The notes under the pieces are model-generated. The model did not search any database. It had not been told where the DNA came from and saw nothing but the letters and a program-made list of their open reading frames with translations. A program made the translations under genes and the position numbers. Of a stretch of 61,823 bases of DNA, positions 3,277 to 57,501 are shown in pieces; the stretch's first letter is position 1, and every line of letters starts with the position of its first letter. Source of the stretch: an uncultured Mycoplasmatota bacterium (lineage in GTDB: Bacteria; Bacillota_I; Bacilli_A; RF39; UBA660); assembly GCA_947649355.1 (NCBI GenBank), contig CANSRG010000002.1, positions 1 to 61,823 of the forward strand, read 5' to 3'.

Positions 3277-3759
3277 ATGAAAAAAATTATGCAAAAAGAG
3301 GCTTATGAAATCAATGAAGAGACATTAGCAATTTTGCCTCTTTCTGATAATCGTGTTTTAGTATATGAGCTTGAGGATTCTTTTGAACTTTGTAATAGCT
3401 CAACTCAAATAATGGAAGATAGTTGTCTTTATTTTGGAAGTACTTTAGATGGAAGAAGGAAAGCAACTGCTTCTTTAATTGGTGTGAATTATAAAGCACC
3501 GATTATTGTGGAAGAAACGAAAGAACTTATTTTTTTTCCTATGGCTTCTACACGGTTTCGTGATACCACTTGGATTGGTCTTAAAAATCTAAAAAGTTAT
3601 TATCGTAGTGATGATGGGATTGTCATTGAATTTCAAAAAGGACAAAAAATTACTTTAGATTCTTCTTTTGGTGTTGTGGATAACCAAATTTTGCGCGCTA
3701 CAAGGCTTGAAAGTGCTTTAAGGGGGAGAAAAACAGGAAAAAAACGTTTAAAAATGTAA
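3277..3759 (+). CDS. comK: ComK-family competence transcription factor homologue
   Basis: 160 aa. Aligns by eye with the B. subtilis ComK core: YEINEETLAILP / SCLYFGSTLDGRRKAT / YKAPIIVEE..ELIFFPMAS.R..DTTWI versus YEVNGATIAVLP / SCRFFGSSYAGRKAGT / HKPPIMVDP..QIFLFPTLS.R....GWI. Confidence 0.75.
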   Translation: MKKIMQKEAYEINEETLAILPLSDNRVLVYELEDSFELCNSSTQIMEDSCLYFGSTLDGRRKATASLIGVNYKAPIIVEETKELIFFPMASTRFRDTTWIGLKNLKSYYRSDDGIVIEFQKGQKITLDSSFGVVDNQILRATRLESALRGRKTGKKRLKM

Positions 3760-4949: not shown

Positions 4950-6855
4950 TATTCATGAATATGGCGATAGTGATATTCAGGTTTTAGAGGGATTAGAAGC
5001 AGTTCGTAAACGTCCTGGTATGTATATTGGAAATACGAATGAAGCAGGTCTTCATCATTTAGTTTGGGAGATTGTGGATAATGCTGTGGATGAAGCTTTG
5101 GCTGGATATTGTGATGATATTGAAGTTGAAATTGGCAAAGGTAATGTAATTACTGTAAAAGATGATGGACGAGGCATGCCAACTGGTACAAATGCTAAAA
5201 CTGGTTTATCTACTGTAGAAACTATTTTTACTGTTTTACATGCAGGTGGAAAGTTTGGTGGAGGCGGTTATAAAGTATCTGGTGGTCTTCATGGTGTTGG
5301 AGCTAGTGTTGTTAATGCTATGAGTGATTGGCTTGAAGTAAGGGTTTATCGTGATGGTAATGTTTACATGATGCGTTTTGAAAATGGTGGTAAACCTGTC
5401 GAACCTTTAAAAATTGTGGATAAGTGTAGTGAAGAGCGAACAGGAACTACAGTATCTTTTCATGCTGATCCTACTCTTTTTGAAACTACTGTATTTAATT
5501 GGGATATTTTATATAAACGTCTTCAAGAAATGGCTTTTTTAAATAAAGGAATTCGTATTCAACTTATTGACCATAGAGAAGATGAGAAAAAAGCTATTTT
5601 TCATTATAATGGTGGGATTATTGAATATGTTAATATGCTTAATAAAAATAAGACTCCATTGTTTCAAGATGTCGTTTATGTTGAGGGTCGAGAAGAGGAT
5701 ATTATTATTGAAGTTGCTATGCAATACAATGATTCATATAATGCTTCTATTTATTCTTTTACCAACAATATTCACACGACGGAGGGTGGAACGCATGAAG
5801 ATGGTGTAAAACAAGCTTTAACACGTGTTATTAACAATTATGCTAAAAATAATAAGATTTTGAAAGATAATGATGATAGTTTAATGGGTGAAGATGTTCG
5901 TGAGGGTGTAGTTATGATTATTTCTTGTAAACATCCTAATCCTCAATTTGAAGGTCAAACTAAAACAAAACTTGGAAATAGTGAAGTACGTAAGATAGCA
6001 AGTGATGTTTTTGCTAATGGTTTTGAAAGATTTTTACTTGAAAATCCAGAGATTGCTCGTCTTATTATTGAAAAATGTTTGACTGCTTCAAGAGCTAGAA
6101 TTGCTGCTAAAAAGGCACGTGAAATTACTCGTCGTAAAAGTGATTTAGATGTAGTTAATTTTGCAGGAAAACTAGCTGATTGTAAAAGTAAGGATTCTAA
6201 AGAATGTGAAATTTTCTTAGTCGAGGGAGATAGTGCAGGTGGGTCTGCTAAAAAAGCTCGTAATAGTATGACACAAGCGATTCTTCCTTTACGTGGTAAA
6301 ATTTTGAATGTTGAGAAAGCAAGACTTGATCGTGCGTTATCTAATGAAGAAATTCGTACAATTATTACTGCTTTTGGTACAGGTATTGGGGATGAATTTG
6401 ATTTATCGAAGCTTCGTTATGATAAGATTATTATTATGACTGATGCCGACGTGGATGGTTCTCATATTAGAGTTTTACTTTTGACTTTATTTTATCGCTT
6501 TTTTAGACCGATTGTAGAGGCGGGACACGTTTATGCGGCTAATCCTCCATTATTTTCTATAAAACACGGTAAAACAACTAAATATGTGCTTTCAGAGGAA
6601 GAAAAGTTAGAGTATTTGGAAACGTTACCTGCTTCTGCTAAACCTGTGATTGGTCGAATGAAGGGGTTAGGTGAAATGGATGCTGATGAACTTTATGAGA
6701 CTACTATGGATATTGAACAAAGAGTTTTAAGGCAAATTACTGTGGAAGATGCAATGATGGCTGATGAAATGTTTTCTACTTTAATGGGAGAAGAAGTTGA
6801 ACCAAGGCGTAAGTTTATTGAGGAAAATGCATCTTATGCAGATTTGGATATATAG
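4930..6855 (+). CDS. gyrB: DNA gyrase subunit B
   Basis: GHKL ATPase motifs ([23 protein letters not shown]), Toprim [21 protein letters not shown]. The start overlaps the recF end by 20 nt; ATG 4936 is an alternative start. Confidence 0.97.
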
Positions 6856-6865
6856 GAGGTAACTT

Positions 6866-9319
6866 ATGGATAAATTGATTCAAAACAATATAGTGAAAGA
6901 GATTAGTGATTCTTTTATTGATTATTCTATGAGTGTCATTACTTCACGTGCATTACCAGACCTTCGAGATGGTATGAAACCTGTTCATCGTCGTATTTTG
7001 TATTCTATGTATGAATCTGGTTATACATCTGATAAGCAACATCGTAAATGTGCACGTATTGTAGGGGATGTTATGGGTAAATACCATCCTCATGGAGATT
7101 CTTCTATTTATGAAGCTATGGTACGTATGGCTCAAGATTTTAGTTATCGTTATATGTTAGTTGATGGTCATGGAAATTTTGGAAATATTGATGGAGATGG
7201 CGCGGCAGCAATGCGTTATACGGAGTCTCGTTTAGCTAAAATCTCTAATGAATTACTACGTGATTTAAATAAAGACACGGTTAATATGAGAGATAATTTT
7301 GATGCAACAGAGAAGGAACCAGAGGTTCTACCAAGCCGTTTTCCAAATATTTTGGTAAATGGTACGATGGGAATTGCAGTAGGTATGGCTACTAATATTC
7401 CACCTCATAATTTAGGGGAGGTAATTGATGGATGTATTGCATATATTGATAATCCTCTTATTGATACCGAAGGTTTAATGCAATATGTTAAAGGACCAGA
7501 TTTTCCTACAGGAGCTATTATTTTAGGAAATTCAGGTATTAAAAAGGCTTATGAAACTGGTCGTGGAAGTATTACAATACGTAGTAAAGCAAGAATTGAA
7601 GAGAAAAATGGTCGTTTTTCTATTATTATTGATGAGGTTCCGTATGGTGTAAATACGTTATCTTTAAAAAATAAAGTAGCAGAGCTAGTTCATAATAAAA
7701 TTATTGATGGTATTTCTGATTATCATTCAGATATGAAAAATGGTATTAAGATTACTATTACTTTAAAGAGGGATGCAAATCCTCAAGTTGTTCTTAATAA
7801 TTTATATAAGCATACTGATTTTCAAACTAGTTTTGGTATTATTTTCTTGATGATTGACCAAGGTGTTCCAAAGACTCTAGGTTTAAAAGATATTATCGCT
7901 AAATATATTGATTATCAAAAGGAAGTAATTATAAGAAGAACTCGTTTTGACTTAAAAAAAGCTGAAGATAGAGTTCATATTTTAGAAGGTTTAAAGATTG
8001 CTTTAGATCATATTGATGAAGTTATTAAGCTTATTCGTGGTAGCGAGACAGATGAAGAAGCTCAAAAAGGTTTGATGAATCGATTTGGACTTAGTGAAAT
8101 TCAAGCAAATGCGATTTTGGAAATGAGATTGCGTCGTTTGACTGGTTTATCGAAGGTTCAAATTGAAACTGAATTAAATGAATTGTTAAAGAAAATTGAA
8201 GATTTACGGGCAATATTAGCTAGTGAAGCACGTATTCTTGCCATTATTAAAGAAGAAATGTTTGAAATTAAAGCAAAATATGCAGATGAACGTAGAACTC
8301 ATATTGATATGACCGCGATTGAATATATTGAAGATGAGTCGTTAATACCAGAAGAAAATATTATGATTGCTTTAACTAATAAAGGTTATATAAAAAGAAC
8401 GAATGTTGATACTTTTAAATCACAAAATAGAGGTGGTGTAGGTGTAAAAGGAATGGGAACAAATGATGAGGATTTTGTTGAACATTTACTTAACTTATCC
8501 ACACATGATTATGTTCTATTCTTTACAAATAAAGGAAAAGTTTATCGTTTAAAAGGTTATGAGATTCCTGAATTTAGTCGTCAATCTAAAGGAATACCAG
8601 TGATTAACTTACTTTCGATTGATAAAGATGAATCTATCAATTCTATTATCCGTATTAGTAAAGATAATGAATATAAATATTTATTATTTGCTACAAAGAA
8701 AGGTATTGTTAAGAAAACATTGGTTTCTGAATTCGATAATATAAGGGCAAATGGTAAGATATGTATTACTTTACGTGAGACTGATGAGCTTATTAGTGTT
8801 AGAAAGACTACTGGTAATGATATGATTCTTTTAGGGGCAAGTTCTGGTCGTATGGTGAAGTTTAATGAAGAGACTTTACGAGTTATGGGTCGAACTGCAA
8901 GTGGAGTAAGAGGTATCAATTTGGAAGATAATACTTGTATTGGGGCAGAAATTGCTACTGATGAAGATAAGATTCTTATTGTAACCGAAAAAGGATACGG
9001 AAAACAAACAAACGTTTGTGATTATAGACAAACCAGTAGAGGAAGTAAAGGTGTAAAAGCCCTTAATGTTACAGAAAAGAATGGTACTATTGCGGCATTT
9101 AAGATTGTAGAGGAAAATTCTGATGTTGTTATTATTACAAATACTGGTATGATCATTCGTTTACCTCTTGAACAAGTTTCTACTTTAGGTAGAGTGACTC
9201 AAGGTATACGTTTGATAAATTTAAAAGATAATCAATCTGTATCGACAATTAGTATTGTTGAGCATGAAGTAAAAGAAGATTCTACTATAGAAAATTCTAC
9301 TGATGAAGCTTCTGAGTAA
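6866..9319 (+). CDS. gyrA: DNA gyrase subunit A
   Basis: 817 aa with [15 protein letters not shown] N-terminus ([14 protein letters not shown]), active-site region [11 protein letters not shown], and repeated C-terminal beta-pinwheel blades (GKGY.KR-type repeats). Confidence 0.97.
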
Positions 9320-9329
9320 TTCCTAGATA

Positions 9330-10220
9330 ATGTTTCACGTGAAACATTGGGGAGAAATTAGAAACTTCTAGAGTGTGGATAACTATGTTTCACGTGAAAC
9401 ATAGTTTTTTTTATATATAAATATATGTGTATAAATAATTATTTATAATCTATTTATATATATTGTTTAATCTTTTAATAATTGAATAATGTAATTTACT
9501 CTATAAAACTAGAAATTTGTGTATAAATTATATTCTACTTGTTTTAAACTTCTAACTATATTTATCATATAAATCATAAAAAATGTTCAACCAATAGTTA
9601 TAATAAAAATAATTATCTTTAAATATTAGATTGATTTTAGTATCAATGTTTCACGTGAAACATTGTGAATAACTTGATATTTGTAATGTAATAATAGAAA
9701 AAATTCAATTATTGTTAATAAAAAAACTATTTTTTATATAATATTTTGAGAAATTAAGTAAGTTGTAAAAAGTTATATCTATCAGTGAAATATAAATTAT
9801 TTTTAAAAACTAAATAATATAACAAAAAAAGAATTAAAGTTTATATAAAAATTTAATGTTGCTTATAATCTAAATAAAATAAAGTGAATAACTATGTTTC
9901 ACGTGAAACATATATTTTAAAATTATAATATGTAAAACAGTACTTATTTTACTTTTTATACTAAAAATTAGTTAAATATTTTAAATAATTATTTATTTTT
10001 TAGTGATATTTATTAAAATACTAAATATTTATAAAAAACTATATAAAAGTTACTTTTTTAATTTAACTTTTATGACACTTTAAGCAATGTTTCACGTGAA
10101 ACATTGTGTATAACTCTATTATTTAGGCCTATTCATTTAATTTAGTGTTAATAAAGTTAAAAATACTAAATTTTTATATCAAATTTTAATTAGTGAATAA
10201 GTATGTTTCACGTGAAACGT
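9330..10220. repeat. array of six parS (ParB/Spo0J-binding) palindromes with abutting DnaA-box-like 9-mers
   Basis: TGTTTCACGTGAAACA at 9331-9346, 9386-9401, 9647-9662, 9895-9910 and 10088-10103; TGTTTCACGTGAAACG at 10204-10219. Exact fit to the B. subtilis parS consensus TGTTNCACGTGAAACA. Adjacent boxes: TGTGGATAA 9374-9382, TGTGAATAA 9664-9672, aGTGAATAA 9884-9892, TGTGTATAA 10105-10113, aGTGAATAA 10192-10200. Free-standing TGTGTATAA at 9426-9434 and 9518-9526. No ORF of 60 aa or more in 9320-10354. Confidence 0.8.
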
Positions 10221-10227
10221 TGAATAC

Positions 10228-10256
10228 TTGCATTTTATTAAAAACTTTGTTATTAT
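10228..10256 (+). promoter_or_regulatory. sigma-A-type promoter for the SRP RNA
   Basis: TTGCAT (10228-10233), 17-nt spacer, TATTAT (10251-10256), placed 6-7 nt before the predicted RNA 5' end. Confidence 0.55.
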
Positions 10257-10262
10257 TTATTC

Positions 10263-10340
10263 GTGCAACAAATATAATGTAAATTGGTCAGGATCGGAAG
10301 ATAGCAGCCACGTCATTCCCTGTTTGTGTGCACTTTTTTT
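10263..10340 (+). ncRNA. ffs: small (4.5S-type, ~71-78 nt) signal recognition particle RNA
   Basis: Universal SRP domain IV at 10286-10309: GGUCAGG-AUC-GGAA-GAU-AGCAGCC (E. coli 4.5S has GGUCAGG-UCC-GGAA-GGA-AGCAGCC). Closing helix GUGCAACAAA (10263-10272) pairs with UUUGUGUGCAC (10323-10333) with one bulge, followed by a U7 tract (10334-10340). Sits next to tadA/dnaX, as scr does in B. subtilis. Confidence 0.85.
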
Positions 10341-10354
10341 ATGGAGTGATATAA

Positions 10355-10786
10355 GTGAATAATAATCGATATTTTGAAGAATGTATTATTGAATCTCATA
10401 AATGTTTAAAATATGCTGATGTTCCAATTGGAGCAATAATCGTTAAAAATGATAAGATAATTGGAAGAGGTTTTAATACTCGTGAAAAAGATAATAATAT
10501 ATTAGGACACGCAGAAATCAATGCGATTTTAGAGGCTTCTAAATCATTAAATAATTGGAATTTATCAGATTGTGATTTGTATGTTAGTTTACAACCATGT
10601 TCCATGTGTAACGAAGTAATTAAGCAATCAAGAATTCGTAATGTTTATTATTTATTAGGAAAATTATCCTTTAAAAAGGAGTATAATAGGACTATTTTTC
10701 ATGAATTTCAAGAAAATGACACTTTTTATATCAAACAAATGTACGCTAAAGAATTATCTGATTTTTTTAAAGAAAAAAGACAATGA
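10355..10786 (+). CDS. tadA: tRNA-specific adenosine deaminase
   Basis: 143 aa with CDA-fold zinc motifs HAEINAI and PCSMCNEVI. GTG start 8 nt after GGAG. Confidence 0.9.
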   Translation: MNNNRYFEECIIESHKCLKYADVPIGAIIVKNDKIIGRGFNTREKDNNILGHAEINAILEASKSLNNWNLSDCDLYVSLQPCSMCNEVIKQSRIRNVYYLLGKLSFKKEYNRTIFHEFQENDTFYIKQMYAKELSDFFKEKRQ

Positions 10787-12466: not shown

Positions 12467-12763
12467 ATGAATATGCAAAGTATAATGATGCAAGCACAAA
12501 AAATGCAAAAAGATTTACAAAAAAAGAAAGAAGAAATAAATGTAAAATTATTTCCCGGGAAATATCAATTTGTGGAAGTTACTTTGAATGGTAAAAAAGA
12601 GATGGTACGTTGTAAAATTGATAAAGAAAGTTTGACTCAAGAAGATATTGAAATGTTAGAAGATTTCTTAGTATTAGCGGTGAAAGATGCAATAGAAAAA
12701 ATTGATAAAGAATTTCAAAGTAAAATGGGGCAATATGCTGGAATGCTTGATGGTTTGATGTAA
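12467..12763 (+). CDS. ybaB: YbaB/EbfC-family nucleoid-associated protein
   Basis: 98 aa with an N-terminal MQ.AQKMQ..LQK motif. Invariant position between dnaX and recR. Confidence 0.9.
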   Translation: MNMQSIMMQAQKMQKDLQKKKEEINVKLFPGKYQFVEVTLNGKKEMVRCKIDKESLTQEDIEMLEDFLVLAVKDAIEKIDKEFQSKMGQYAGMLDGLM

Positions 12764-14471: not shown

Positions 14472-15254
14472 ATGAATGTTTATGAAGTTGTTTTTAAAGA
14501 AAAAGGTAAATCTTATCATTTTATTAGTCAAAACTCACAAATTGCAAATCGTGTGACTGTAATTGTTGATACTGAAAGAGGATTACAATTTGGTCGCGTG
14601 GTAAAAAAGGTTTTAAGACCAAAAATACATGAGAATATGAGAGAAATTATTCGAATTTCTACAAAAAAAGATTATGAACAATATTTAAAAAATTTGAAAG
14701 ATGCAGAAGATGCTTTAGAAAAGGCTCGTAAGTGTAGTCAAGAGCTTAAGTTGCCTATGCGTTTTATTGATGCTAGTTTTACTTTTGATCGAAAGCAGTT
14801 ACTATTTAATTTTTATGCTGATGAAAGAATTGATTTTCGAGAACTTGCTAAAAAGCTTGCAACAATTTATAAAACTCGAATTGAACTTCGTCAAATTGGA
14901 GCTCGTGATAAAGCAGAACAAATTGGTGGTATAGGGATATGTGGTAGAAAACTTTGTTGTTCTAGTTGTTTGAAAAAATTGGAGTCTGTTTCTATGAATA
15001 TGGCTAAAAATCAAAATTTGGCATTAAATCCTTCCAAAATCAATGGTGCTTGTGGTAGGTTGTTATGTTGTCTTACTTATGAAGATGCTTTATATACCAA
15101 GTGTTCTGTTGGATTACCTACAGTTGGTTCTATTGTTTCTACAGAATATGGAGAAGGACAAGTTGTAAGTTTGGATATTTTAAATCGTAAATATAAAGTA
15201 AATATAAATAATGAAATAAAGGAAATAGTTTTACAAGATGAAGAAGTCTCTTAA
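14472..15254 (+). CDS. ricT: PSP1-domain protein YaaT/RicT (stage 0 sporulation / RNase Y maturation complex)
   Basis: 260 aa. PSP1 C-terminal domain with the typical Cys clusters (GICGRKLCCSSCL, GACGRLLCCLTYE). Synteny after holB. Confidence 0.88.
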   Translation: MNVYEVVFKEKGKSYHFISQNSQIANRVTVIVDTERGLQFGRVVKKVLRPKIHENMREIIRISTKKDYEQYLKNLKDAEDALEKARKCSQELKLPMRFIDASFTFDRKQLLFNFYADERIDFRELAKKLATIYKTRIELRQIGARDKAEQIGGIGICGRKLCCSSCLKKLESVSMNMAKNQNLALNPSKINGACGRLLCCLTYEDALYTKCSVGLPTVGSIVSTEYGEGQVVSLDILNRKYKVNINNEIKEIVLQDEEVS

Positions 15255-15948
15255 TTGGTTGTTTGATTATCCAAATTTACAAGTTTATCAGTATGAAGAA
15301 GCTTTTAAATTTTCTTTAGATTCTATTTTATTGGCAGAATTTGCTGATATTAAAAAAAATGATGAAAATATATTAGATATGTGTACTGGTAATGGTGTTA
15401 TTCCTATTCTTTTAAATTATAAGTATCAAAAAAAAGTATTTGGAATTGAAGTACAAGAAGAAATTATAGAACTTGCTCGTGATTCTATTTTGTTTAATAA
15501 TATGTCAAATGCGATTACTTTGATTCAAGATAATGTGGCTAATTTAAAAAATTATTTCCCGGGAAATAATTTTGATGTTATTTTATGCAATCCACCTTAT
15601 TTTAAATATCAAAATGATTCGCATGTGAATGAAAATATTTTAAAAAGAATCGCGCGACATGAAATTTTGATTACTTTAGAAGAAATTTTTCAAGTTGCTA
15701 GTTATTTATTGAAAGACAAAGGGAAATTTTATTTAGTTCATGTTCCTGATCGGATAGATGAAATTTTTGTTTATGCATTTTTAAATGGAATGGCTGTAAA
15801 AGAAGTTCAATTTATTCATTCTAAATTAGAAGAAAAACCAATTATTTTGTTAGTTACTTTAGTGAAGAGTGGAAAATTTGGTACTAAAATTTATTCGCCG
15901 ATATGTATTCAAAATTTAAAAACTTACCAAAATATATTTAGAAAGTGA
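15238..15948 (+). CDS. SAM-dependent N6-adenine methyltransferase (YabB / tRNA m6A37 TrmN6-like)
   Basis: 236 aa. SAM-binding ILDMCTGNG and catalytic NPPY (LCNPPYF). Occupies the yabB position after yaaT. Confidence 0.8.
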   Translation: MKKSLNWLFDYPNLQVYQYEEAFKFSLDSILLAEFADIKKNDENILDMCTGNGVIPILLNYKYQKKVFGIEVQEEIIELARDSILFNNMSNAITLIQDNVANLKNYFPGNNFDVILCNPPYFKYQNDSHVNENILKRIARHEILITLEEIFQVASYLLKDKGKFYLVHVPDRIDEIFVYAFLNGMAVKEVQFIHSKLEEKPIILLVTLVKSGKFGTKIYSPICIQNLKTYQNIFRK

Positions 15949-20317: not shown

Positions 20318-20522
20318 AATCAAGCGATGAAAGAAAAGAGTATATAAATTATCTTTTTAAAGAGAGTCTATGTGGGTGAAAGTAGATAAGAGGTATTTAT
20401 AGAAGATGGTTTCTAGAGTTTGAACGGAAATTCCCGTTATTGAATTGAAAGTGCATGTTAAGTCATGAATAAAGGTGGTACCACGCGAATTTGCGTCCTT
20501 TTGTTCATGACTTTTTATTTTT
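20318..20522 (+). promoter_or_regulatory. T-box riboswitch leader, Met specifier
   Basis: Stem I GA/K-turn AGCGATGA, AGAGAG box and distal GGTGAAAG. AUG specifier at 20406-20408. T-box sequence AATAAAGGTGGTACCACGCG at 20467-20486 (UGGU would pair with ACCA). Terminator arms AGTCATGAA / TTCATGACT followed by a T-run ending ~20522. Confidence 0.85.
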
Positions 20523-20539: not shown

Positions 20540-22087
20540 ATGGAAAATAAAAATTATTATATTAGTACTGCGATTGCTTATGCATCTAGTAAACCACATA
20601 TAGGAAATACTTATGAGATTGTTTTAGCTGATGCCATTGCGCGTTTTAAAAGAAGTAGAGGTTTTCATGTTTATTTTCAAACTGGTACAGATGAACATGG
20701 AGAAAAAATTGAATTAAAGGCAAAGGAAGCAGGTGTAAAACCTCAAGAATATGTAGATAATATTTCCCGGGAAATAAAAGGGGTTTGGGATGTGATGAAT
20801 ACTAGTTATGATAAGTTTGTTCGAACTACTGATTCTCATCACAAAGAAGTAGTAGAACGAATATTTGAAAAATTATATCAGCAAGGTGATATTTATCTTT
20901 CTCAATATGAAGGACTTTATTGTACTCCTTGTGAATCATTTTGGACAGACTCTCAGCTTATTGAAGGAAAATGTCCTGATTGTGGAAGAGAGGTTTTGAA
21001 AAGAAGTGAAGAAGCATATTTCTTTCGTTTATCAAAATACCAAAAGCAATTAGAAGAACATATTCTTACACATCCAGAATTTATTCAACCAGCTGCACGT
21101 AAGAATGAAATGATAAATAATTTTTTAAAGCCTGGTCTACAAGATTTATGTGTTTCTCGTACTTCTTTTGATTGGGGAGTGAAAGTACCATTCAATGAAA
21201 AACATATTGTTTATGTTTGGATTGATGCTTTATCAAATTATATTACAAATATTGGCTATGATGTGGATGGTGGAAACGAACAATTTCAAAAATGGTGGCC
21301 TGCAGATTTGCATTTAATAGGAAAAGATATTTTGCGTTTTCATACTATTTATTGGCCTATTCTTCTAATGGCTTTAAATTTACCTTTGCCTAAACAAATT
21401 TTTGGACATCCTTGGCTGTTGTATGGAAATGATAAAATGAGTAAAAGTAAAGGAAATATTTTGTATGCTGATGATTTAGTGAAACAATTTGGAGTAGACG
21501 CGATTCGTTATTATGTTTTACATGAAATTCCATTTCAAAATGATGGAACTATTTCTTATGAACTTATTATGGAACGAATCAATGGTGATTTAGCGAATGT
21601 TCTTGGAAATTTAGTACAAAGAACTATTTCAATGGCTCAAAAATATTTTGACGGGAAGGTTTTAAATTTGAAGGTAAGAGAATCTTTAGATGATGAGTAT
21701 CTTCAAAGTATAAATTCTCTATCTTCCTTAGTAGATTTAAAAATGGAGAAATTGGAAATTGGTCAAGCTTTGGATGTTATTTTTGATGTTTTAAGAAAAT
21801 CTAATAAATATATTGATGAAACATTACCATGGGTTTTAGCAAAAGAGGAACATACAAAAGATAGATTAGAAACTGTTTTATATCATTTATTAGAAAGTAT
21901 TCGTGTTTGTGCACTTGAATTAAGTCCATTTATGCCTGAAACTAGTACTGAGATATTAAGACAACTTCATTCAGAAGATTTAGAACATAACTTTGTCGAA
22001 GATCATATTTATCAGGTTTTAAATCCTAGTCCTTTATTTCAAAGAATTGATATAACAAAAAAATTAGAAGAACTTGGTGTAAAGTGA
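20540..22087 (+). CDS. metG: methionine--tRNA ligase
   Basis: 515 aa from ATG 20540 (MENKNYYISTAI). HIGH-type PHIGN, KMSKS, and zinc knuckles CTPCESF / CPDCGRE. The ORF-track start 20465 lies inside the T-box terminator. Confidence 0.95.
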   Translation: MENKNYYISTAIAYASSKPHIGNTYEIVLADAIARFKRSRGFHVYFQTGTDEHGEKIELKAKEAGVKPQEYVDNISREIKGVWDVMNTSYDKFVRTTDSHHKEVVERIFEKLYQQGDIYLSQYEGLYCTPCESFWTDSQLIEGKCPDCGREVLKRSEEAYFFRLSKYQKQLEEHILTHPEFIQPAARKNEMINNFLKPGLQDLCVSRTSFDWGVKVPFNEKHIVYVWIDALSNYITNIGYDVDGGNEQFQKWWPADLHLIGKDILRFHTIYWPILLMALNLPLPKQIFGHPWLLYGNDKMSKSKGNILYADDLVKQFGVDAIRYYVLHEIPFQNDGTISYELIMERINGDLANVLGNLVQRTISMAQKYFDGKVLNLKVRESLDDEYLQSINSLSSLVDLKMEKLEIGQALDVIFDVLRKSNKYIDETLPWVLAKEEHTKDRLETVLYHLLESIRVCALELSPFMPETSTEILRQLHSEDLEHNFVEDHIYQVLNPSPLFQRIDITKKLEELGVK

Positions 22088-22150: not shown

Positions 22151-24085
22151 ATGTTTGGAAAAATTTTATATATTAGTGATAATATTGCTTTTATTGAAAA
22201 TAAAATGACAGAAGATGTTGGAGCAGATTTATTAAATCTTCATTTAGTGTTTGAGCAAGGGGAGCATAAAGTATTAAGTGAGATTACAGAAATTAAAGAT
22301 GATGAAATTCGTGTAAAGTTTTTAGGTGAGTTTGTCGATGGTCATTATCGTAATGGTATTTTAAGAAAGGCTAGTTTATCTAGTACTATTCGACCTATAA
22401 AACCAGAAGAATTGATTTTGTTAGTTGGAGAGCAATCCAAACAAAATTTTGTGTTAGGTCAAAGTGCTACTTATAAAGATGCTTTAATATGTCCTAATAT
22501 TAACGATTTATTAGCAAGTCATTTTTGTATTTTTGGAAATTCAGGTGCTGGTAAATCTTGTGGTGTCGCAAGAATTGTTCAAAATCTTTTGTCTAATAAA
22601 TTTTCTTTAGCTTATAATGCAAATTTATTGTTTTTTGATTCTTTTGGAGAATATAAAACGGCTTTTAATAGTATCAATACTATTAACCCTTATTATAGTT
22701 ATAAATTTATTACTTCTCGGATAAAAGATAATGATGATCAACTTATAAATATTCCTATGAATTTACTTAAAGTAGATGATTTGGCAGTATTACTTCAAGC
22801 GGATAAGCATTCTCAGTTAACTATTATTGACCGTGCAATGCAGTTAGCTAAAATCTTTTCTTTAGATACAACTGATTCTCATCGTTATAAAAATAATATT
22901 ATTGCAAGTGCTTTAATTACTGTTTTATATAGTTCTCAAACGACAGATAAGAAAAAAGATGAAATATTTCGCATTATAAATACTTGTCATACTCCTGAGT
23001 TTAATTTAGATACTGATATTCCAGGTGTTGGTTATACAAGAACTTTTGCAGAATGTTTTCAAATTGATTCTCGAGGAAAATTTGGAGAAGAAGTGTTAAT
23101 TACAGAATATATTTTGAAATTTATTGATGAATCTTTAATTATAGATGCAAATTTAAATACAACAACTTTTACTTTGAATGACTTTTCAAAAGCGCTTGAT
23201 TTTGCACTTATTAGTGAAGGATTTCAAAATAATCAAAATTTACTGGATGATGCTCAGTTATTAAAGGTTCGTTTATATTCTTTAATTCATGGTCCTGTTG
23301 GTAAGTTATTTACTGGTGATAAAGTTATTACTCCTGGGGAATTTATTACCTCTTTAGTAAGTAATAATAATAAAAAAGCTCAAATTATCAATATCAATTT
23401 GGAAGGGTTAGATGATGCGGTTTCTAAATCTATTGTTAAAATTTATTCTCGTTTGGTTTTTGATTTTTCAAAAGATAATGCAAATCGAGCTACAATTCCT
23501 TTTCATTTATTTTTAGAGGAAGCACATAGATATGTTCAAAAAGATAATGATGTATTTTTACTTGGATATAATATATTTGATCGTATCGCGAAAGAAGGAC
23601 GTAAATACGGAGTATTACTTGGCATTATTTCACAAAGGCCGATGGAAATTAGTGATACTGTTATTGCTCAATGTTCAAATTTCTTGATTTTTAAAATGAC
23701 ACATCCAAAAGATATTAAATATATTGAAGAAATGCTACCTAATATTAGTCAAGATGTTATTGAGAAAATGAAAATTTTACAACCTGGTACTTGTGTTGCT
23801 TTTGGAAGTGCATTTAAGATTCCAATGATTGTTAAACTTGATATGCCAAACCCAAGGCCTTATTCTTCTTCTTGTGATGTGTCGACTTACTGGGATTCTA
23901 AGACTGATATTTCTGAAGGAATTTCTAAAGAAATGATGGGAAATCAATTTGGGGCGATGAATACTAGTGTTGCAGTTTCTCAGTTAGAAAGCGGTTCTGT
24001 AGATATGGGAATTCCTATTAAAAAAGAAGAAGTGGTTGTTTCTGAAAATAAATTTTTAAGTTCAGATGATATTGAAACTTTGTAA
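22151..24085 (+). CDS. HerA/FtsK-superfamily (DUF87-type) P-loop ATPase, orphan
   Basis: 644 aa. N-terminal beta-barrel-like segment, Walker A GNSGAGKS (~22535-22558), Walker B FHLFLEEAHRY, and HerA-like ISQRPMEISDTVIAQCSNFLIFKM. Own extended -10 TGTATAAT at 22120-22127. No NurA, Sir2 or other usual partner gene adjacent. Confidence 0.75.
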   Translation: MFGKILYISDNIAFIENKMTEDVGADLLNLHLVFEQGEHKVLSEITEIKDDEIRVKFLGEFVDGHYRNGILRKASLSSTIRPIKPEELILLVGEQSKQNFVLGQSATYKDALICPNINDLLASHFCIFGNSGAGKSCGVARIVQNLLSNKFSLAYNANLLFFDSFGEYKTAFNSINTINPYYSYKFITSRIKDNDDQLINIPMNLLKVDDLAVLLQADKHSQLTIIDRAMQLAKIFSLDTTDSHRYKNNIIASALITVLYSSQTTDKKKDEIFRIINTCHTPEFNLDTDIPGVGYTRTFAECFQIDSRGKFGEEVLITEYILKFIDESLIIDANLNTTTFTLNDFSKALDFALISEGFQNNQNLLDDAQLLKVRLYSLIHGPVGKLFTGDKVITPGEFITSLVSNNNKKAQIININLEGLDDAVSKSIVKIYSRLVFDFSKDNANRATIPFHLFLEEAHRYVQKDNDVFLLGYNIFDRIAKEGRKYGVLLGIISQRPMEISDTVIAQCSNFLIFKMTHPKDIKYIEEMLPNISQDVIEKMKILQPGTCVAFGSAFKIPMIVKLDMPNPRPYSSSCDVSTYWDSKTDISEGISKEMMGNQFGAMNTSVAVSQLESGSVDMGIPIKKEEVVVSENKFLSSDDIETL

Positions 24086-24147
24086 AAAAGCTTTAATAGT
24101 AAATGTTCTTTTATTAGAAAAAAGTTCTTTTTTTCTTTTTTTTTTCA

Positions 24148-24156
24148 TGTTATACT
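24148..24156 (+). promoter_or_regulatory. extended -10 element upstream of the T7SS-like operon
   Basis: TGtTATACT 33 nt upstream of ATG 24189, after a long T-rich tract. No clear -35. Confidence 0.4.
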
Positions 24157-24188
24157 GGATATATAAAATAGGAAAAGGGGTTAGAGTT

Positions 24189-24428
24189 ATGTCACAATAC
24201 AAATGTCCTTTTTGTGGGAAAGACATTCATCCTGGAGATCAGGTTTGTCTTTTTTGTGGAAAAAAAATTCCTAATGTTACTATGACAATTCAAGATTTAA
24301 ATTCTAAAAATAGTATGAATATAACCACCAAAAAAAATAAAACAATTTTTTATTTATCTGTTAGTTTAGTATGTGTTATGATTTTAGTTTCATTTCTCAT
24401 AGTATGGTTTGGTATTATAAAGGGGTAA
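24189..24428 (+). CDS. zinc-ribbon, single-pass membrane protein (first gene of the T7SS-like operon)
   Basis: 79 aa from ATG 24189 (RBS AAAGGGG). CPFCGK...CLFCGK zinc ribbon and a C-terminal TM FYLSVSLVCVMILVSFLIVWFGII. The ORF-track start 24066 overlaps the upstream gene. Confidence 0.6.
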   Translation: MSQYKCPFCGKDIHPGDQVCLFCGKKIPNVTMTIQDLNSKNSMNITTKKNKTIFYLSVSLVCVMILVSFLIVWFGIIKG

Positions 24429-24430
24429 AT

Positions 24431-24685
24431 ATGAAAAATAAAATATATGTAATTGTATCAGTTCCAATGATTGAACAAGATTTTGATATGTATCTTCCTA
24501 CTCAAAAAAGAGTTGGTTCTATTAAGTCTTTAATTATAAAAATTGTTGAAGAAGAAAGTGATTTTAATTTTATAGATGATGGGTGTAAATATTTATATTA
24601 CAAGTCAACAGGGGAAAAGATTGACGATAATGAGTTTTTGAAATATAGTCAAATTAAAAATGGTACAAGGCTCATTTTATATTAG
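24431..24685 (+). CDS. esaB: YukD/EsaB-like ubiquitin-fold T7SS protein
   Basis: 84 aa from ATG 24431. Beta-grasp-like pattern ending LKYSQIKNGTRLILY (B. subtilis YukD ends LSDCGITNGDRLEIL). Immediately precedes essC. Confidence 0.7.
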   Translation: MKNKIYVIVSVPMIEQDFDMYLPTQKRVGSIKSLIIKIVEEESDFNFIDDGCKYLYYKSTGEKIDDNEFLKYSQIKNGTRLILY

Positions 24686-24700
24686 AAGGGAAGTTCCTTT

Positions 24701-27700
24701 ATGCAAATTACAGTAATTAAAAAAAATAAATTAAATGTTTTTACTTTGCCTAAAGTTGTAAATGGTAATTTTTGGATTACTGATTATGAAAATGGACGTA
24801 AAATCAATTTGATAAATATTGAAGCCACAGAAAATGGATGGCAAATTATTAGTAATCAAAATGCTTTTGTTGTAGACAATAAAGATATTATGATTCCTTA
24901 TGTTTTATTAAAAGATTATTCCTTTTATTTGTTAAAAAATAATTATAAAAATGAAAAGTATTATATCTATTGTAGCCCAGTTTATGAACAAAATTATATG
25001 GAGCTTGGGTTTTTACCAAATGATATCTTAGAAGTAGGAAGTGGCAAAGGAAATTCCATTAGTTATTCTTTATCTGGAGTACCAGATAAATCGTTTACTA
25101 TTTCTAAAAAAGAAAATGATTTTTATCTTACTATTACTGATAATAAATCTGCTGTTTATGTAAATCATCAAAGAGTTTTTCATTATAAAATGATTACATA
25201 TGGAGATATAATCTTTACATTTGGTTTAAAAGTTATACTAATGCGTAAAGAAAGTACAGATTATTTTTTAGTAAATAATCCTGGTAATTTGTTACAATTT
25301 AATGCAGCGATGGTTAATGTTGTTGCAAATAAAAGTCAGTTTTTAGATGATCATCAAATTTTAAACGATGATACTTTTGGTACAACTGATACTTTTTATC
25401 GTACACCTCACTTTTATAAATCTTTAAAACATTTTACTTTAGAGATTGATGCTCCTCCTCAAAAGAAAGATGATAACGATACACCTGTTTTATTAACTTT
25501 AGGGCCAATGCTTACAATGTCTACTACTTCTGTGATGATGTTATTAACCCAATTTAATTCTGTAGCTAAAGGAGAAAAAGACTTAGATTCTTCTATAACG
25601 TCTATGATAAGTGCAGGTGTTATGCTTGCTAGTTGTTTACTATGGCCACTTTTAACGAAAGCTTATAAAAAATATTCTGATAAAAGGTATGAAAGAAAAA
25701 GACAGAAAGCTTATCGTAAATATATTGATAAAAAAGAAATTGAAATTACAAATGAATTGCAAAATCAAAGAAATGCGTTAATAGATAATTATTTTTCTGT
25801 TTCGAAGTGTCAAGAAATTATAAGAGCACATAATGTTCAACTTTGGCAAAAACGTATTACTGATGATGATTTTTTAACATTGCCTATTGGAGTTGGAAAT
25901 GTTCCAATGCAAATTGATATAAAATATCCAGAAGAGCATTTTTCTTTAGAAGAAGATAATCTTTTGGATATGGTTCATGAATTAGGACAGAAGAAGCGAA
26001 TTTTACAAGATGTACCAATTACTTATTCTTTTTATGAAAATATTATTACAGGAATAGTAGGAGAAAATACAGTAACAAAAGCTTTTATTGACCGTGTGGT
26101 TTTACAAATTATGGCAAATTATAGTTATGATGAAGTTAAAATTGTTACTTTTACTTCCATGGATAATGAAAAAAGTTGGGATTATATTAAGACAATTCCT
26201 CATAGTTGGTCTAATGACAGAACTTTACGTTATTTTGGGGCTTCTAATGAAGATTATCGTGAAATGATATATTCTTTAGATAAAATTTTTCAAGAACGAA
26301 AAGAAATGAATTATAAAAGTAAAATCATGCCTCATTATATTATTATTACAGATGCAATTAAGTCTATTGATACTTATGATTTTATTAAAAATTTAATGAG
26401 TTTTTCTAATTTTATTGGATTTAGTATGATTTTGTTAGTGGATAGAATTTCTGCTTTACCAAATGAATGTAAAAATTTTATGGAAGTTAGTAAGCAAGAA
26501 TGTAATATTTTTCAAAGTGAATTAAATGCTGAAGTGCAGAAATTTACTATTGATTTTTCTTCTACAGATTCTATTTATCGATGTGCAGAAGAATTAGCTA
26601 ATATTAAAGTAGATATTAAAACAGAAGTGGAAGCAAGTTTACCAGATACTTATCAGTTTTTAGAGATGTATCAAGTAGGTAAGGTAGGGCAGTTAAATTC
26701 TTTAGAAAGATGGAAAAAAAATAATCCTGTTCTTTCTTTACAAGCACCGATTGGAATTGGAAAAAGTGGAGAAATTATTACACTTGATTTACATGAAAAA
26801 TATCATGGACCACATGGTCTAGTTGCTGGTACTACAGGTTCTGGTAAATCAGAATTTATTATTAGTTTTGTATTATCATTAGCAGTTAATTATCATCCTT
26901 ATGAAGTACAAGTCATTTTAATAGATTATAAAGGTGGTAGTTTAGCTGGAGCATTTTTAAGTGATCGTTATCAACTTCCGCATCTTACAGGTACAATTAC
27001 AAATTTAGATGGAAATGAATTAAATCGTTCTTTGGCATCGATTGAAAGTGAAGTGAAAAGAAGACAAAGGGAATTTAATGAGGCTAGAGAAATTGCAAAT
27101 GAAAGTACAATAGATATTTATAAATATCAAAGACTTTGGCGAGAAGGTAAATTAAAGGATAAAGAACCAATAGCTCATTTATTTATTATTAGTGATGAAT
27201 TTGCGGAGTTAAAAGAACAACAACCAGAATTTATGGATAAACTAATTTCTGTAGCGCGTGTGGGAAGAAGTTTGGGAGTTCATTTGATTTTAGCTACTCA
27301 AAAACCAGGTGGTGTGGTAAATGCTCAAATATGGTCAAATACAAGATTTCGTGTTTGTTTAAAAGTTCAAGATACAGGAGATTCTCAAGAAGTATTAAAA
27401 AAACCTGATGCAGCTTATTTAAAAAGAACAGGACGCTTTTATTTGCAAGTTGGTTATGATGAAGTGTATACTTTAGGACAATCTGCGTGGGCAGGTGGAC
27501 AATATTATCCTAATACAACTTTTCAAAAAGAAGTAGATACTAGTGTAAATACTATTAACAATGTTGCTTATATTACAACTTCAAAAGAGAACGATGTGAA
27601 AGAAAAGTCGGAGTCTTTAGGAGAAGAACTTCCTAATATTGTAAAATATTTAAGTGATATTGCAAGAGATGAAAATATTCATGTACGTAAATTATGGCTT

Positions 27701-29299
27701 GATAAGATTCCAGCATATATTTTTATTGATTCTTTAAAAAGTAAGTATCATTTTGTACGAACAAATTTTGAAATAAATCCAATAATTGGAGAATATGATG
27801 ATCCATCAACTCAAAAACAATTTTTGTTAAATGTTCCTTTTTCTTCTAATGGAAATGCAATTGTTTATGGAATTGCAGGAAGTGGAAAAGAACAATTTAT
27901 TAGTTCGTTAATTTATTCTTGTATGACTACTTATGCACCAGAAGAAGTAAATTTTTATGTTATGGATTTTGGAGCTGAAACACTTCGCATGTTTAAAGAT
28001 AGTCCTTATGTTGGCGATGTTGTTTATGTTAATGATACAGATAAAGTAGTTAATCTTTTTAAAATGCTTACAGATGAGCTTACTAAAAGAAAACAACTAT
28101 TTGCTAATTATGGTGGAAATTATAATTCGTATATTAAAAGTAAAGTGGGTTATTTGGCAAATTATATTGTAGTTATTAACAATTTTGAAGCTTTTACAGA
28201 AAATTATGAAGAAAAGATGGAGTTATTAAATCAACTGTCAAGAGACTCATTTAAGTATGGTATATTTTTTCTTATTTCTGCAAGTAACGATAGTGCAGTT
28301 CGTTTAAGAACTCGTCAAAATTTTTCTTTGATTTATGCTTTACAACAAAATGATGAATCAGATTATTCTTCTCTTTTAGGGAATGCTCGTGGAAAAACTC
28401 CAGCAAAAATTAAGGGACGTGGACTTTTCAAAAAGGAGACAATTTATGAATTTCAAACGGCAAGTATTGTAAAAGAAGAGGAAGATTTGGGACATTATAT
28501 TAAAAAATATTGTGAAGCATTGTTAACAAAAACTACTTATCGTGCTAAAAGAATTCCTATTTTACCAGAAGTTGTAGATTATGAAGTTATTAAAAATGAT
28601 TTTGTTTATGACTATAATTTAGTAGTTGGAGTAAATAAAAATGATTTATCTATTGAAAAATATAATTTTAAGAAAAATGTTGCTCATTTAATTTCTAGTT
28701 ATGAAATTGAAGATACTTATCATTTTGTAAACGCTTTAGCAAGAGAGGCAATGGATATTAAAAATGCTGATTTCTTATTTATGAATTCGACAGACTTTTC
28801 TTTTGTAGATTCTCCATTTCAAAATAAACTTTATTCTAAACAATTTGATATAGTATTTGAAAAAATTGCTTCTTTTGTAGATACTGTTTATGAGAAATAT
28901 GAAGCAAGTGATTTTTCTGATGAGGTTTTAATGAACCACAAGAGTATGATTTGTTTTGTTTATGGTATGTATGATATTTTCAATAAATTAAAAGACGATA
29001 CAAAGAAATTGTTAGCTCCGATGATGAAGAAGAATGCTCAAATGAATTTGGTTTCTTTTGTAATGATTGATAGTCCAGATTTAATTCGTACCTTTCTTTA
29101 TGAAGAGTGGTTTAAGGTTGGTGTAGATACTTCAAGAGGTATATGGATTGGTAGTGGAGTTGGTGAGCAATCTTTAATTCGTGTTTCTAAATTGGCTCGT
29201 GAAGATAGAGAAGATATTCCTAAAGATTACGGATTTCTTATTCAAAATTCTAAAGCTGCTCGGATTAAATTGTTACAAGAATACGAAAAAGAAAGCTAG
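24701..29299 (+). CDS. essC: type VII secretion FtsK/SpoIIIE-family ATPase EssC
   Basis: 1532 aa. FHA-like N-terminal domains, two TM segments (aa ~265-320), ATPase D1 with GTTGSGKSE (aa 710-718, nt 26828-26854) and DEFAEL. D2 has GIAGSGKE (aa 1057-1064) but a non-acidic Walker B position (VVINNFEAF). D3 has no recognisable P-loop. Confidence 0.92.
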   Translation: MQITVIKKNKLNVFTLPKVVNGNFWITDYENGRKINLINIEATENGWQIISNQNAFVVDNKDIMIPYVLLKDYSFYLLKNNYKNEKYYIYCSPVYEQNYMELGFLPNDILEVGSGKGNSISYSLSGVPDKSFTISKKENDFYLTITDNKSAVYVNHQRVFHYKMITYGDIIFTFGLKVILMRKESTDYFLVNNPGNLLQFNAAMVNVVANKSQFLDDHQILNDDTFGTTDTFYRTPHFYKSLKHFTLEIDAPPQKKDDNDTPVLLTLGPMLTMSTTSVMMLLTQFNSVAKGEKDLDSSITSMISAGVMLASCLLWPLLTKAYKKYSDKRYERKRQKAYRKYIDKKEIEITNELQNQRNALIDNYFSVSKCQEIIRAHNVQLWQKRITDDDFLTLPIGVGNVPMQIDIKYPEEHFSLEEDNLLDMVHELGQKKRILQDVPITYSFYENIITGIVGENTVTKAFIDRVVLQIMANYSYDEVKIVTFTSMDNEKSWDYIKTIPHSWSNDRTLRYFGASNEDYREMIYSLDKIFQERKEMNYKSKIMPHYIIITDAIKSIDTYDFIKNLMSFSNFIGFSMILLVDRISALPNECKNFMEVSKQECNIFQSELNAEVQKFTIDFSSTDSIYRCAEELANIKVDIKTEVEASLPDTYQFLEMYQVGKVGQLNSLERWKKNNPVLSLQAPIGIGKSGEIITLDLHEKYHGPHGLVAGTTGSGKSEFIISFVLSLAVNYHPYEVQVILIDYKGGSLAGAFLSDRYQLPHLTGTITNLDGNELNRSLASIESEVKRRQREFNEAREIANESTIDIYKYQRLWREGKLKDKEPIAHLFIISDEFAELKEQQPEFMDKLISVARVGRSLGVHLILATQKPGGVVNAQIWSNTRFRVCLKVQDTGDSQEVLKKPDAAYLKRTGRFYLQVGYDEVYTLGQSAWAGGQYYPNTTFQKEVDTSVNTINNVAYITTSKENDVKEKSESLGEELPNIVKYLSDIARDENIHVRKLWLDKIPAYIFIDSLKSKYHFVRTNFEINPIIGEYDDPSTQKQFLLNVPFSSNGNAIVYGIAGSGKEQFISSLIYSCMTTYAPEEVNFYVMDFGAETLRMFKDSPYVGDVVYVNDTDKVVNLFKMLTDELTKRKQLFANYGGNYNSYIKSKVGYLANYIVVINNFEAFTENYEEKMELLNQLSRDSFKYGIFFLISASNDSAVRLRTRQNFSLIYALQQNDESDYSSLLGNARGKTPAKIKGRGLFKKETIYEFQTASIVKEEEDLGHYIKKYCEALLTKTTYRAKRIPILPEVVDYEVIKNDFVYDYNLVVGVNKNDLSIEKYNFKKNVAHLISSYEIEDTYHFVNALAREAMDIKNADFLFMNSTDFSFVDSPFQNKLYSKQFDIVFEKIASFVDTVYEKYEASDFSDEVLMNHKSMICFVYGMYDIFNKLKDDTKKLLAPMMKKNAQMNLVSFVMIDSPDLIRTFLYEEWFKVGVDTSRGIWIGSGVGEQSLIRVSKLAREDREDIPKDYGFLIQNSKAARIKLLQEYEKES

Positions 29300-29315
29300 A
29301 AATCTAGCTTTTTTA
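29292..29315 (+). terminator. rho-independent terminator after essC
   Basis: AAAGCTAG-aaat-CTAGCTTT hairpin overlapping the essC stop codon, followed by a T-run. Confidence 0.6.
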
Positions 29316-29416
29316 CATTTTGTTTACACGAAAAACTTGTTTTGTTTGACTTTCATTTTTTCTTTGTGTTATTCTTAGAATGAAAGTACAAAGGTACTTA
29401 GGGAGGAAGAAAGAAA

Positions 29417-30061: not shown

Positions 30062-30089
30062 TTTTAAAATATTTGATTTGAATATTTTG

Positions 30090-30123
30090 GTTGTTGACAA
30101 ATATATTGTCAGCAACTTTTTTC
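30090..30123 (+). terminator. rho-independent terminator
   Basis: GTTGTTGACAA-atata-TTGTCAGCAAC (one G-U pair) followed by TTTTTT. Confidence 0.75.
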
Positions 30124-57424: not shown

Positions 57425-57429
57425 TTAAA

Positions 57430-57453
57430 GGATGGTTTTACCATTCTTTTTTT
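57430..57453 (+). terminator. rho-independent terminator of the giant gene
   Basis: GGATGGT-ttt-ACCATTC (7 bp including one G-U) followed by T7. The T-run runs into the TAGTCTA of the right yabG promoter copy. Confidence 0.65.
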
Positions 57454-57501
57454 AGTCTACTTTTTTTTAAATTGTCATATAGTTTAAAGGGAGATGATTA
57501 A

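Follow-up and report, generated by a model that had tools for sequence, protein, structure and literature searches.

The spacer that follows gyrA near the replication origin of an uncultured Mycoplasmatota bacterium (contig CANSRG010000002.1) raises the question of what a gene-free stretch of less than 1 kb does with six copies of parS, the palindrome bound by the partition protein ParB in Bacillus subtilis, and with DnaA boxes placed directly beside most of them. The DNA analysed, hereafter the window, comprises 61,823 nucleotides and starts at the replication origin of an A+T-rich bacterium (~27% G+C). With moderate confidence, we read the spacer between gyrA and ffs, the gene for the small signal recognition particle (SRP) RNA, as a centromere array for ParB that serves at the same time as a DnaA-box cluster close to oriC. 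The individual parts of this reading differ in strength. That is, the parS array is very probably a bound centromere and the boxes are likely to bind DnaA, whereas a regulatory role of the proximity between boxes and parS is put forward tentatively. We infer ParB binding, DnaA binding and any coupling between the two from the sequence.

The spacer (9320–10258; 0.94 kb) has a G+C content of 16.9% as compared to ~27% for the window, and no open reading frame of 40 aa or more is listed in it before position 10228. It is devoid of rRNA, tRNA or RNA-family remnants, the SRP RNA being the sole Rfam match in the region, and no tandem-repeat structure was detected in the array. The features of the spacer and its borders are given below; L148 denotes a conspecific strain whose gyrA is 99.35% identical.

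6866–9319, + strand: gyrA, left border of the array in every relative
9331–9346: parS 1, perfect TGTTTCACGTGAAACA, 12 nt past the gyrA stop codon, identical in L148
9374–9382, + strand: DnaA box TGTGGATAA (reads as a perfect TTATCCACA on the opposite strand), 3 nt 5' of parS 2, kept in L148
9386–9401: parS 2, perfect
9426–9434, + strand: free DnaA box TGTGTATAA, not beside a parS, disrupted in L148
9518–9526, + strand: free DnaA box TGTGTATAA, kept in L148
9647–9662: parS 3, perfect
9664–9672, + strand: DnaA box TGTGAATAA, 1 nt 3' of parS 3
9883–9891, + strand: one-mismatch DnaA box AGTGAATAA, 3 nt 5' of parS 4
9895–9910: parS 4, perfect
10088–10103: parS 5, perfect
10105–10113, + strand: DnaA box TGTGTATAA, 1 nt 3' of parS 5
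10192–10200, + strand: one-mismatch DnaA box AGTGAATAA, 3 nt 5' of parS 6
10204–10219: parS 6, one mismatch (last base G), same variant in L148, just 5' of the conserved SRP RNA promoter region
10259–10339, + strand: small SRP RNA gene (ffs), Rfam match of 52 bits, right border of the array
10355–10786: tadA, next gene after ffs

A preliminary description of this DNA had reported six parS copies, five perfect and one with a single change, and their positions were confirmed. The same applies to its five abutting and two free boxes (9426 and 9518), all co-oriented in the window, and to the alternation of boxes between the two sides of the palindrome, the gap being 3 nt when the box lies upstream (parS 2, 4 and 6) and 1 nt when it lies downstream (parS 3 and 5). 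One box start, given as 9884, was one base off and is 9883. The spacer had also been recognized as gene-free and AT-rich, which holds, but it had been extended to tadA, overlooking ffs at 10259–10339; it is therefore a gyrA–ffs and not a gyrA–tadA spacer.

What carries the assignment of a centromere is, on the one hand, the exclusivity of the palindrome to this spacer and, on the other hand, its conservation. In five of the six copies the palindrome extends to 18 nt (ATGTTTCACGTGAAACAT). Not a single further match to TGTTTCACGTGAAACA with up to two mismatches was found in the 61,823-base window, shuffled sequences leading to an expectation of 0.02. The array is located 7.3–8.3 kb to the right of the candidate unwinding region between dnaA and dnaN, and 8.9–9.8 kb from the boxes upstream of dnaA. 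A scan with GyrA, taking one genome per species, recovered 17 loci with 64–88% GyrA identity, all of them in uncultured gut bacteria that carry the label Bacilli, Erysipelotrichaceae or 'Tenericutes'; further relatives were L019–L021, obtained via DnaA homologues, and the conspecific strain L148. The one relative with a name, Candidatus Ventrenecus, is placed no more closely than 'Bacteria incertae sedis'. In 17 of the 17 GyrA-recovered species, whose gene order is the same from dnaA through yaaT, 2–11 parS sites follow immediately after gyrA, and likewise in L019–L021 and L148; the array is present in all relatives examined (>20). Moreover, 378 kb of origin-proximal DNA of the lineage, including 10–20 kb left of oriC in several genomes, contain 95 exact parS sites, all of which fall in post-gyrA arrays that together make up 11.8 kb. 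Among the relatives, parS varies only at position 5, which is T or C, and at the mirror position.

The DNA between the sites behaves differently. Inter-site spacers are unalignable even at 87–88% GyrA identity, and what is kept despite this are the parS sites, the boxes, the SRP RNA promoter with the last parS beside it, and ffs itself. Between the window and L148, the spacer differs at 28 of 1035 nt, which is about four times the gyrA rate, and all 28 differences lie outside the six parS and the five boxes that abut them. Thus, the array consists of palindromes fitting TGTTNCACGTGAAACA, is origin-proximal, and is conserved while the surrounding DNA diverges. The proposal of a dedicated centromere-like parS array made in the preliminary description is supported by this conservation and by the absence of parS beyond the spacer in the window and outside the arrays in the 378 kb; comparison of the spacer across relatives likewise bore it out, the motifs persisting where the intervening DNA diverges. 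The number of parS copies changes fast. L019 and L020, whose gyrA genes are 99.8% identical, differ by one 708-bp block with four parS, which reflects either within-species copy-number variation or repeat collapse in metagenome assembly, and in the arrays of L013 and L019 two types of unit alternate.

L019, 18847–20525: array with 11 parS
L020, 18847–19818: array with 7 parS

The second component of the spacer is the DnaA boxes. Exact TGTGNATAA boxes occur at 9374, 9426, 9518, 9664 and 10105, that is five within 740 bp, as compared to 4.8 expected for the entire 61.8-kb window; the window as a whole has 23, and 21 of these lie within its first 10.2 kb. When one mismatch is allowed, the spacer contains nine boxes on the + strand and none on the – strand. 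The boxes in the array are isolated, 40–250 bp apart, and their variants are those of this genome's own oriC. The spacer therefore has what characterizes a DnaA-box cluster, namely several TTATNCACA boxes above chance, near the origin and distinct from it. Since most parS in this species and its closest relatives are directly abutted by boxes of the oriC type, the spacer would also represent an oriC-proximal DnaA-box cluster.

Juxtaposition of box and parS recurs in other genomes. In 20 genomes, 41 of 97 parS sites have a DnaA box with at most one mismatch at an abutting offset (0–4 bp), whereas ~2 are expected from the spacer background (20 such 9-mers in 7542 positions), and all 41 are on the + strand. 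These abutting boxes are concentrated in the closest relatives of the window (L001, L010, L013, L017, L019/L020, L021 and L148), and boxes are also present in the arrays of several metagenome relatives. Beyond the lineage, at least 120 public metagenome contigs match TGTGNATAA-N2-4-parS. Among the matches listed, which range from 19 to 63% G+C, are a large group in which four parS precede a soj-spo0J operon, and a marine high-G+C group. In the soj-spo0J group, the arrangement 'TGTGGATAA-tcag-parS' is kept across differing array architectures. At the unconstrained base, 27 of 45 distinct sites among the matches listed have a G, yielding a perfect TTATCCACA, which points to the perfect DnaA consensus rather than to a pattern of base composition. 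As the juxtaposition thus also exists in unrelated lineages, it is not unique to the window; what is distinctive here is that the box–parS module is repeated at most sites of one array. In L017 (array at 5696–6804), DnaA boxes abut binding sites of the nucleoid occlusion protein Noc too, five of which alternate with parS, and the arrays of L029 and L060 contain repeated triple modules of box, parS and Noc-binding site (NBS).

How could such an array work? CTP-bound ParB clamps load at parS and spread over some 10–20 kb. A parS-specific ParB would accordingly use the six parS to load as a CTP-dependent clamp and from there spread across the origin region, a range in which gyrBA, dnaN, dnaA and oriC would be covered. 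The spread ParB would build the partition complex and recruit SMC, as in B. subtilis. At the same time, DnaA held by the array would be kept from oriC, similar to the DnaA-box clusters of B. subtilis, and the cluster would be duplicated within seconds of initiation. DnaA placed next to ParB loading sites could also lead to mutual influence, DnaA acting as a roadblock for clamps or as a competitor for adjacent DNA, which would link initiation to segregation in cis. Indeed, as the boxes lie 0–4 bp from parS, bound DnaA should block clamps on that side or compete with ParB. The coupling of partition to DnaA titration suggested in the preliminary description is likewise hypothetical. In its strongest form the idea goes further: the spacer is a cis hub whose binding sites for DnaA and ParB, and in some species also for Noc, are purposely set 0–4 bp apart, DnaA gates the loading or sliding of clamps or the reverse, this coupling replaces Soj- or YabA-based control, and the same module in unrelated phyla is a general, so far undescribed design principle. 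We regard this extension as doubtful; if true, a hub of box, parS and NBS would hard-wire initiation, segregation and nucleoid occlusion together.

An A+T-rich spacer studded with DnaA boxes so close to dnaA calls for a look at the origin itself, which has two parts.

121–394: left part of oriC, upstream of dnaA, with seven exact DnaA boxes (six on the + strand)
1894–2046: right part of oriC, the dnaA–dnaN spacer (153 bp), with TTATCCACA at 1922 and tandem TTATCCACA/TTATCCACC at 1975–1992

The right part holds three TTATCCAC-type boxes in total. Its tandem boxes are followed by TAT-TAT-TAT-TAT and an A+T-rich run (to ~2030), and these TAT repeats together with the A+T-rich stretch are likely to constitute the unwinding region. 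Tandem boxes, DnaA-trios and an unwinding element are the usual Firmicute arrangement, as at the B. subtilis origin. The mechanical list of open reading frames places the dnaN start at GTG 1914; the actual start is ATG 2047, which is preceded by a ribosome-binding site. This start and the normal 153-bp spacer rule out that the dnaA–dnaN spacer is missing and that the array serves as the second half of the origin. The array has no tandem boxes that lead straight into trinucleotide repeats and an unwinding element rich in A+T. Because a normal two-part oriC exists 7–9 kb away, the array is not the origin. Two further observations concern this region. The coding region of dnaA contains, at 774–791, two directly adjoining perfect DnaA boxes (TGTGGATAATGTGGATAA), a pair that L019, L020 and L148 share at the equivalent position. 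Upstream of dnaA, two independent assemblies of the species end at the same base (window 1; L018 1), while L148 (9506) continues through this recurrent break into rpmH.

Which protein might read the palindromes? Left of oriC, the loci of L148, L019, L023 and L145 contain rpmH, rnpA, yidC, jag, trmE, gidA, gidB and one ParB-family gene (~405 aa) in this order, with unrelated genes beyond it.

L148, 290–1516, – strand: Noc-type ParB-family gene
L019, 376–1590, – strand: Noc-type ParB-family gene

Q, K, N and R occupy the four specificity positions of the encoded protein. Among NCBIfam models it scores highest with nucleoid_noc (283–287 bits; curated cut-off 315), the generic ParB domain reaching 180 bits. 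ParB proteins have R173 and G201 at the specificity positions, whereas Noc proteins have Q173, K179, K184 and R201; Q173 reads adenine 1 and R201 cytosine 6, given a lysine at 179 or 184, and both residues specify NBS rather than parS bases (Jalal et al. 2020, PMC7383237). Judged by these residues, the sole ParB-family gene near oriC is of the Noc type. Unlike B. subtilis Noc, the protein is without an N-terminal membrane-targeting helix; its C-terminus carries an acidic extension of ~200 aa with a conserved 'IPNKFFNFLEDEAANM' stretch, which could be a relocated amphipathic helix. Perfect NBS are present in the window, all of them inside genes:

12550–12563: perfect NBS ATTTCCCGGGAAAT, inside ybaB
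15554–15567: perfect NBS ATTTCCCGGGAAAT, inside the methyltransferase gene
20762–20775: perfect NBS ATTTCCCGGGAAAT, inside metS

The array of the window contains no ATTTCCCGGGAAAT. The relatives also carry this site, in many cases at matching positions within ybaB or dnaX, and together these sites indicate an active Noc-type system in a genome of 27% G+C. Across the 378 kb, 102 sites are purely of the parS type and 27 purely of the NBS type, and none of the 129 is a hybrid, which speaks against one promiscuous protein reading both palindromes. The absence of hybrids, together with the Noc-type identity of the sole family gene nearby, would imply a separate parS-specific ParB. The preliminary description had seen a ParB loading platform here: the conserved parS array is there, but a cognate ParB gene did not come to light, the family being represented near oriC by the Noc-type gene only. 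It had also reported that yabA is missing from its place after yaaT, which is correct for that position, as the PSP1/yaaT gene (14472–15254) overlaps a methyltransferase gene instead. Searches by tblastn with B. subtilis ParB, ParA and YabA sequences against the window and all loci of relatives analysed matched only the Noc-type gene, the best E-value for YabA being 0.1, which is no convincing match.

Several observations weigh against a joint centromere and DnaA-box cluster, and most of them would fit a simpler explanation, namely that this is a plain parS array in which the adjacent box-like 9-mers are functionless and were carried along in block duplications. The arrays of L002, L003, L011, L012 and L014–L016 are without boxes, so boxes are not needed for the centromere. 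In the distant metagenome branches L075, L043, L077 and L093, the boxes have the opposite chromosomal orientation; the co-orientation noted for the window is thus a property of single genomes that the lineage as a whole does not share, some branches having the boxes reversed. Disruption in the conspecific strain shows the free box at 9426 to be weakly constrained. Block duplication is evident from the 708-bp block of L019/L020 and the alternating units of L013 and L019; as arrays expand in this way, copies within one genome are not independent. The end of the box that faces parS varies within the window, the TAA end in some cases and the TGTG end in others, which argues against a single fixed contact between DnaA and ParB and in favour of close proximity as the selected property. 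On the other hand, hitchhiking accounts poorly for the recurrence of the adjacency in at least seven species whose spacers are unalignable, for two geometries that simple duplication does not interconvert, for the strand bias of 41 to 0 in the genome set, for abutting boxes free of substitutions between conspecific strains, and for the juxtaposition in unrelated lineages, where the free base is enriched for the perfect DnaA consensus among the matches listed. We consider a plain array unlikely for these reasons. An explanation that dispenses with ParB altogether, in which the repeats are terminators, RNA hairpins or a miniature mobile element merely resembling parS, starts from parS 2, whose extended palindrome (9381–9406) followed by a run of eight T (to 9416) scores as an intrinsic terminator of gyrA. 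The first parS after gyrA is flanked by a T-run in several relatives as well, and one centromere site may double as the gyrA terminator. However, only one of the six copies has a T-run, the copies fit the 16-nt ParB consensus and vary among relatives only at its known degenerate position, the flanks are unconserved without terminal repeats or target duplications, and Rfam yields no family besides the SRP RNA. Such an origin of the repeats is exceedingly improbable.

A more serious difficulty is the missing partner. No parS-type ParB gene was found in the window, in 9.5 kb left of oriC in L148 or in 20 kb left of oriC in relatives, and neither parA nor a second parB stands beside the Noc-type gene in L148, L019, L023 and L145, the usual Firmicute location. 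In Bacillus, the Soj(ParA)–DnaA route links partition proteins to DnaA; as parA and yabA are lacking at the loci searched, partition may here lack the connections to DnaA known from Bacillus, which likewise speaks against the joint function. It could be argued that soj-spo0J has been lost and that the array is bound by the Noc-type or another protein instead of a canonical ParB, in line with the Q, K, N and R signature and the nucleoid_noc match of the only family member near oriC. Yet the 102 parS-type and 27 NBS-type sites with no hybrid form the pattern expected of two readers, Q173 and R201 specify NBS bases and not those of parS (PMC7383237), and the search for family genes covered ~80 kb around oriC, so that a ParB gene could lie elsewhere. 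Loss of the canonical reader is thus quite improbable. Finally, a gene-free stretch of 0.94 kb with 17% G+C and nine co-oriented DnaA-box-like sites might suggest a second or alternative replication origin or an unwinding element. This is at odds with the complete oriC at 121–394 and 1894–2046, with the spacing of 40–250 bp between the boxes of the array, which form no tight tandem pairs as found beside an unwinding element, and with relatives whose arrays are as short as ~265 bp and contain no boxes. GC skew is positive from the start of the window, 9 kb being beyond its resolution. A second origin is therefore very improbable, and we continue to favour a ParB centromere array that is at the same time a DnaA-box cluster.

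To our knowledge, links between initiation and segregation described so far are either protein–protein contacts, as between Soj and DnaA in Bacillus, or single cases, as DnaA at the Caulobacter centromere. Compared with known systems, the array is closest to Spo0J/ParB–parS of B. subtilis (TGTTNCACGTGAAACA), with which it shares the identical 16-bp palindrome, the origin-proximal location and the expected nucleation of ParB-CTP clamps and loading of SMC. However, B. subtilis has eight to ten single, dispersed parS, many of them intragenic, whereas all sites seen here are in one gene-free spacer, and no soj-spo0J operon adjoins noc/gidB. Dense clusters are known from Myxococcus xanthus, with 22 parS in 3 kb located ~4 kb upstream of parA (PMC3899335), and Corynebacterium glutamicum, with 10 parS in 35 kb (PMC7083940). 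Like these and the four-site arrays from gut metagenomes, the array has many intergenic parS near the origin with variable spacing. The clusters in M. xanthus, C. glutamicum and the metagenomes lie near parAB, whereas the present one lies between gyrA and ffs with no parAB nearby and with most sites abutted by boxes.

With regard to the boxes, clusters near oriC restrain initiation in B. subtilis, synergistically with Spo0J (Okumura et al. 2012, PMC3245932). The spacer resembles them, and in function would be comparable to datA of Escherichia coli, in having several TTATNCACA boxes within a few hundred bp near oriC. No parS are interspersed among the boxes of the B. subtilis clusters, whereas the boxes of the spacer touch parS, are 40–250 bp apart and have one orientation. 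The centromere of Caulobacter crescentus contains boxes to which DnaA binds (Mera, Kalogeraki and Shapiro 2014, as cited in PMC6399470), and RctB binds at rctA/parS2 of Vibrio cholerae chromosome II (PMC6399470). As far as these cases are summarized there, the Caulobacter centromere, and by analogy RctB at rctA/parS2, shares with the array initiator sites within the parS region that link initiation to segregation. Caulobacter, which belongs to another phylum, has few boxes and ParA-driven segregation, whereas here the box–parS module is repeated and ParA-driven segregation is not evident. The likeness to the Noc/NBS system (Jalal et al. 2020, PMC7383237) lies in the Noc-type paralogue and in perfect ATTTCCCGGGAAAT sites, which are interleaved with parS in some relatives; the array of the window, by contrast, contains parS only, and the Noc-type protein is devoid of an N-terminal membrane helix and has a long acidic C-terminal extension. 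Thus, dense parS clusters, DnaA-box clusters outside oriC and DnaA at a centromere, the latter in one alphaproteobacterium, are already known. New are the constant location in the gyrA–ffs spacer, remote from any parAB, a box–parS module that is repeated, to which NBS are added in some relatives, and the conservation of the array in a group of uncultured gut Bacilli.

Gene order in the window is dnaA (496–1893), dnaN, comK, recF, gyrB, gyrA, the spacer, ffs, tadA, dnaX, ybaB, recR, holB and PSP1/yaaT. The ComK-family gene (3277–3759, + strand) replaces yaaA/rlbA between dnaN and recF, and its position is kept in all relatives whose loci extend that far. Sporulation genes are present in the window (spoVT, spoVG, yabG and yabP) and in L023 (spoIIR), and the lineage consists of uncultured gut Bacilli that are apparently spore-forming. 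Further downstream, at 20318–20503, a T-box leader precedes the methionyl-tRNA synthetase gene. A cluster resembling type VII secretion loci (22151–40489) encodes a HerA-like ATPase, a 1532-aa FtsK/SpoIIIE (EssC-like) protein, a WXG100 protein, a DUF4176 protein and a 2784-aa protein with ADP-ribosyltransferase and HD domains, which is probably a polymorphic toxin. At 42768–58281, a 94-aa N-terminal fragment of YabG after ksgA is followed by two large serine recombinases (43431–46572), a 3484-aa M26 peptidase/dockerin-domain protein, and a full yabG (57502–58281); the full copy and the fragment are only 46% identical. This segment looks like a ~14.5-kb element inserted in or beside the sporulation gene.

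Taken together, the array bears on the coordination of replication with segregation, which is only partly understood in bacteria and which here would be written in the DNA: sites for the initiator repeatedly touch centromere sites and, in some species, nucleoid-occlusion sites, in a lineage where parA and yabA are apparently absent from their usual loci. With a length of less than 1 kb, the array would provide a compact natural substrate for asking whether bound DnaA blocks, competes with or helps the loading of ParB-CTP clamps, and whether a centromere can double as a DnaA sink. For the group of gut bacteria in which it is conserved, the post-gyrA array is a reliable landmark of the origin region in metagenome-assembled genomes.

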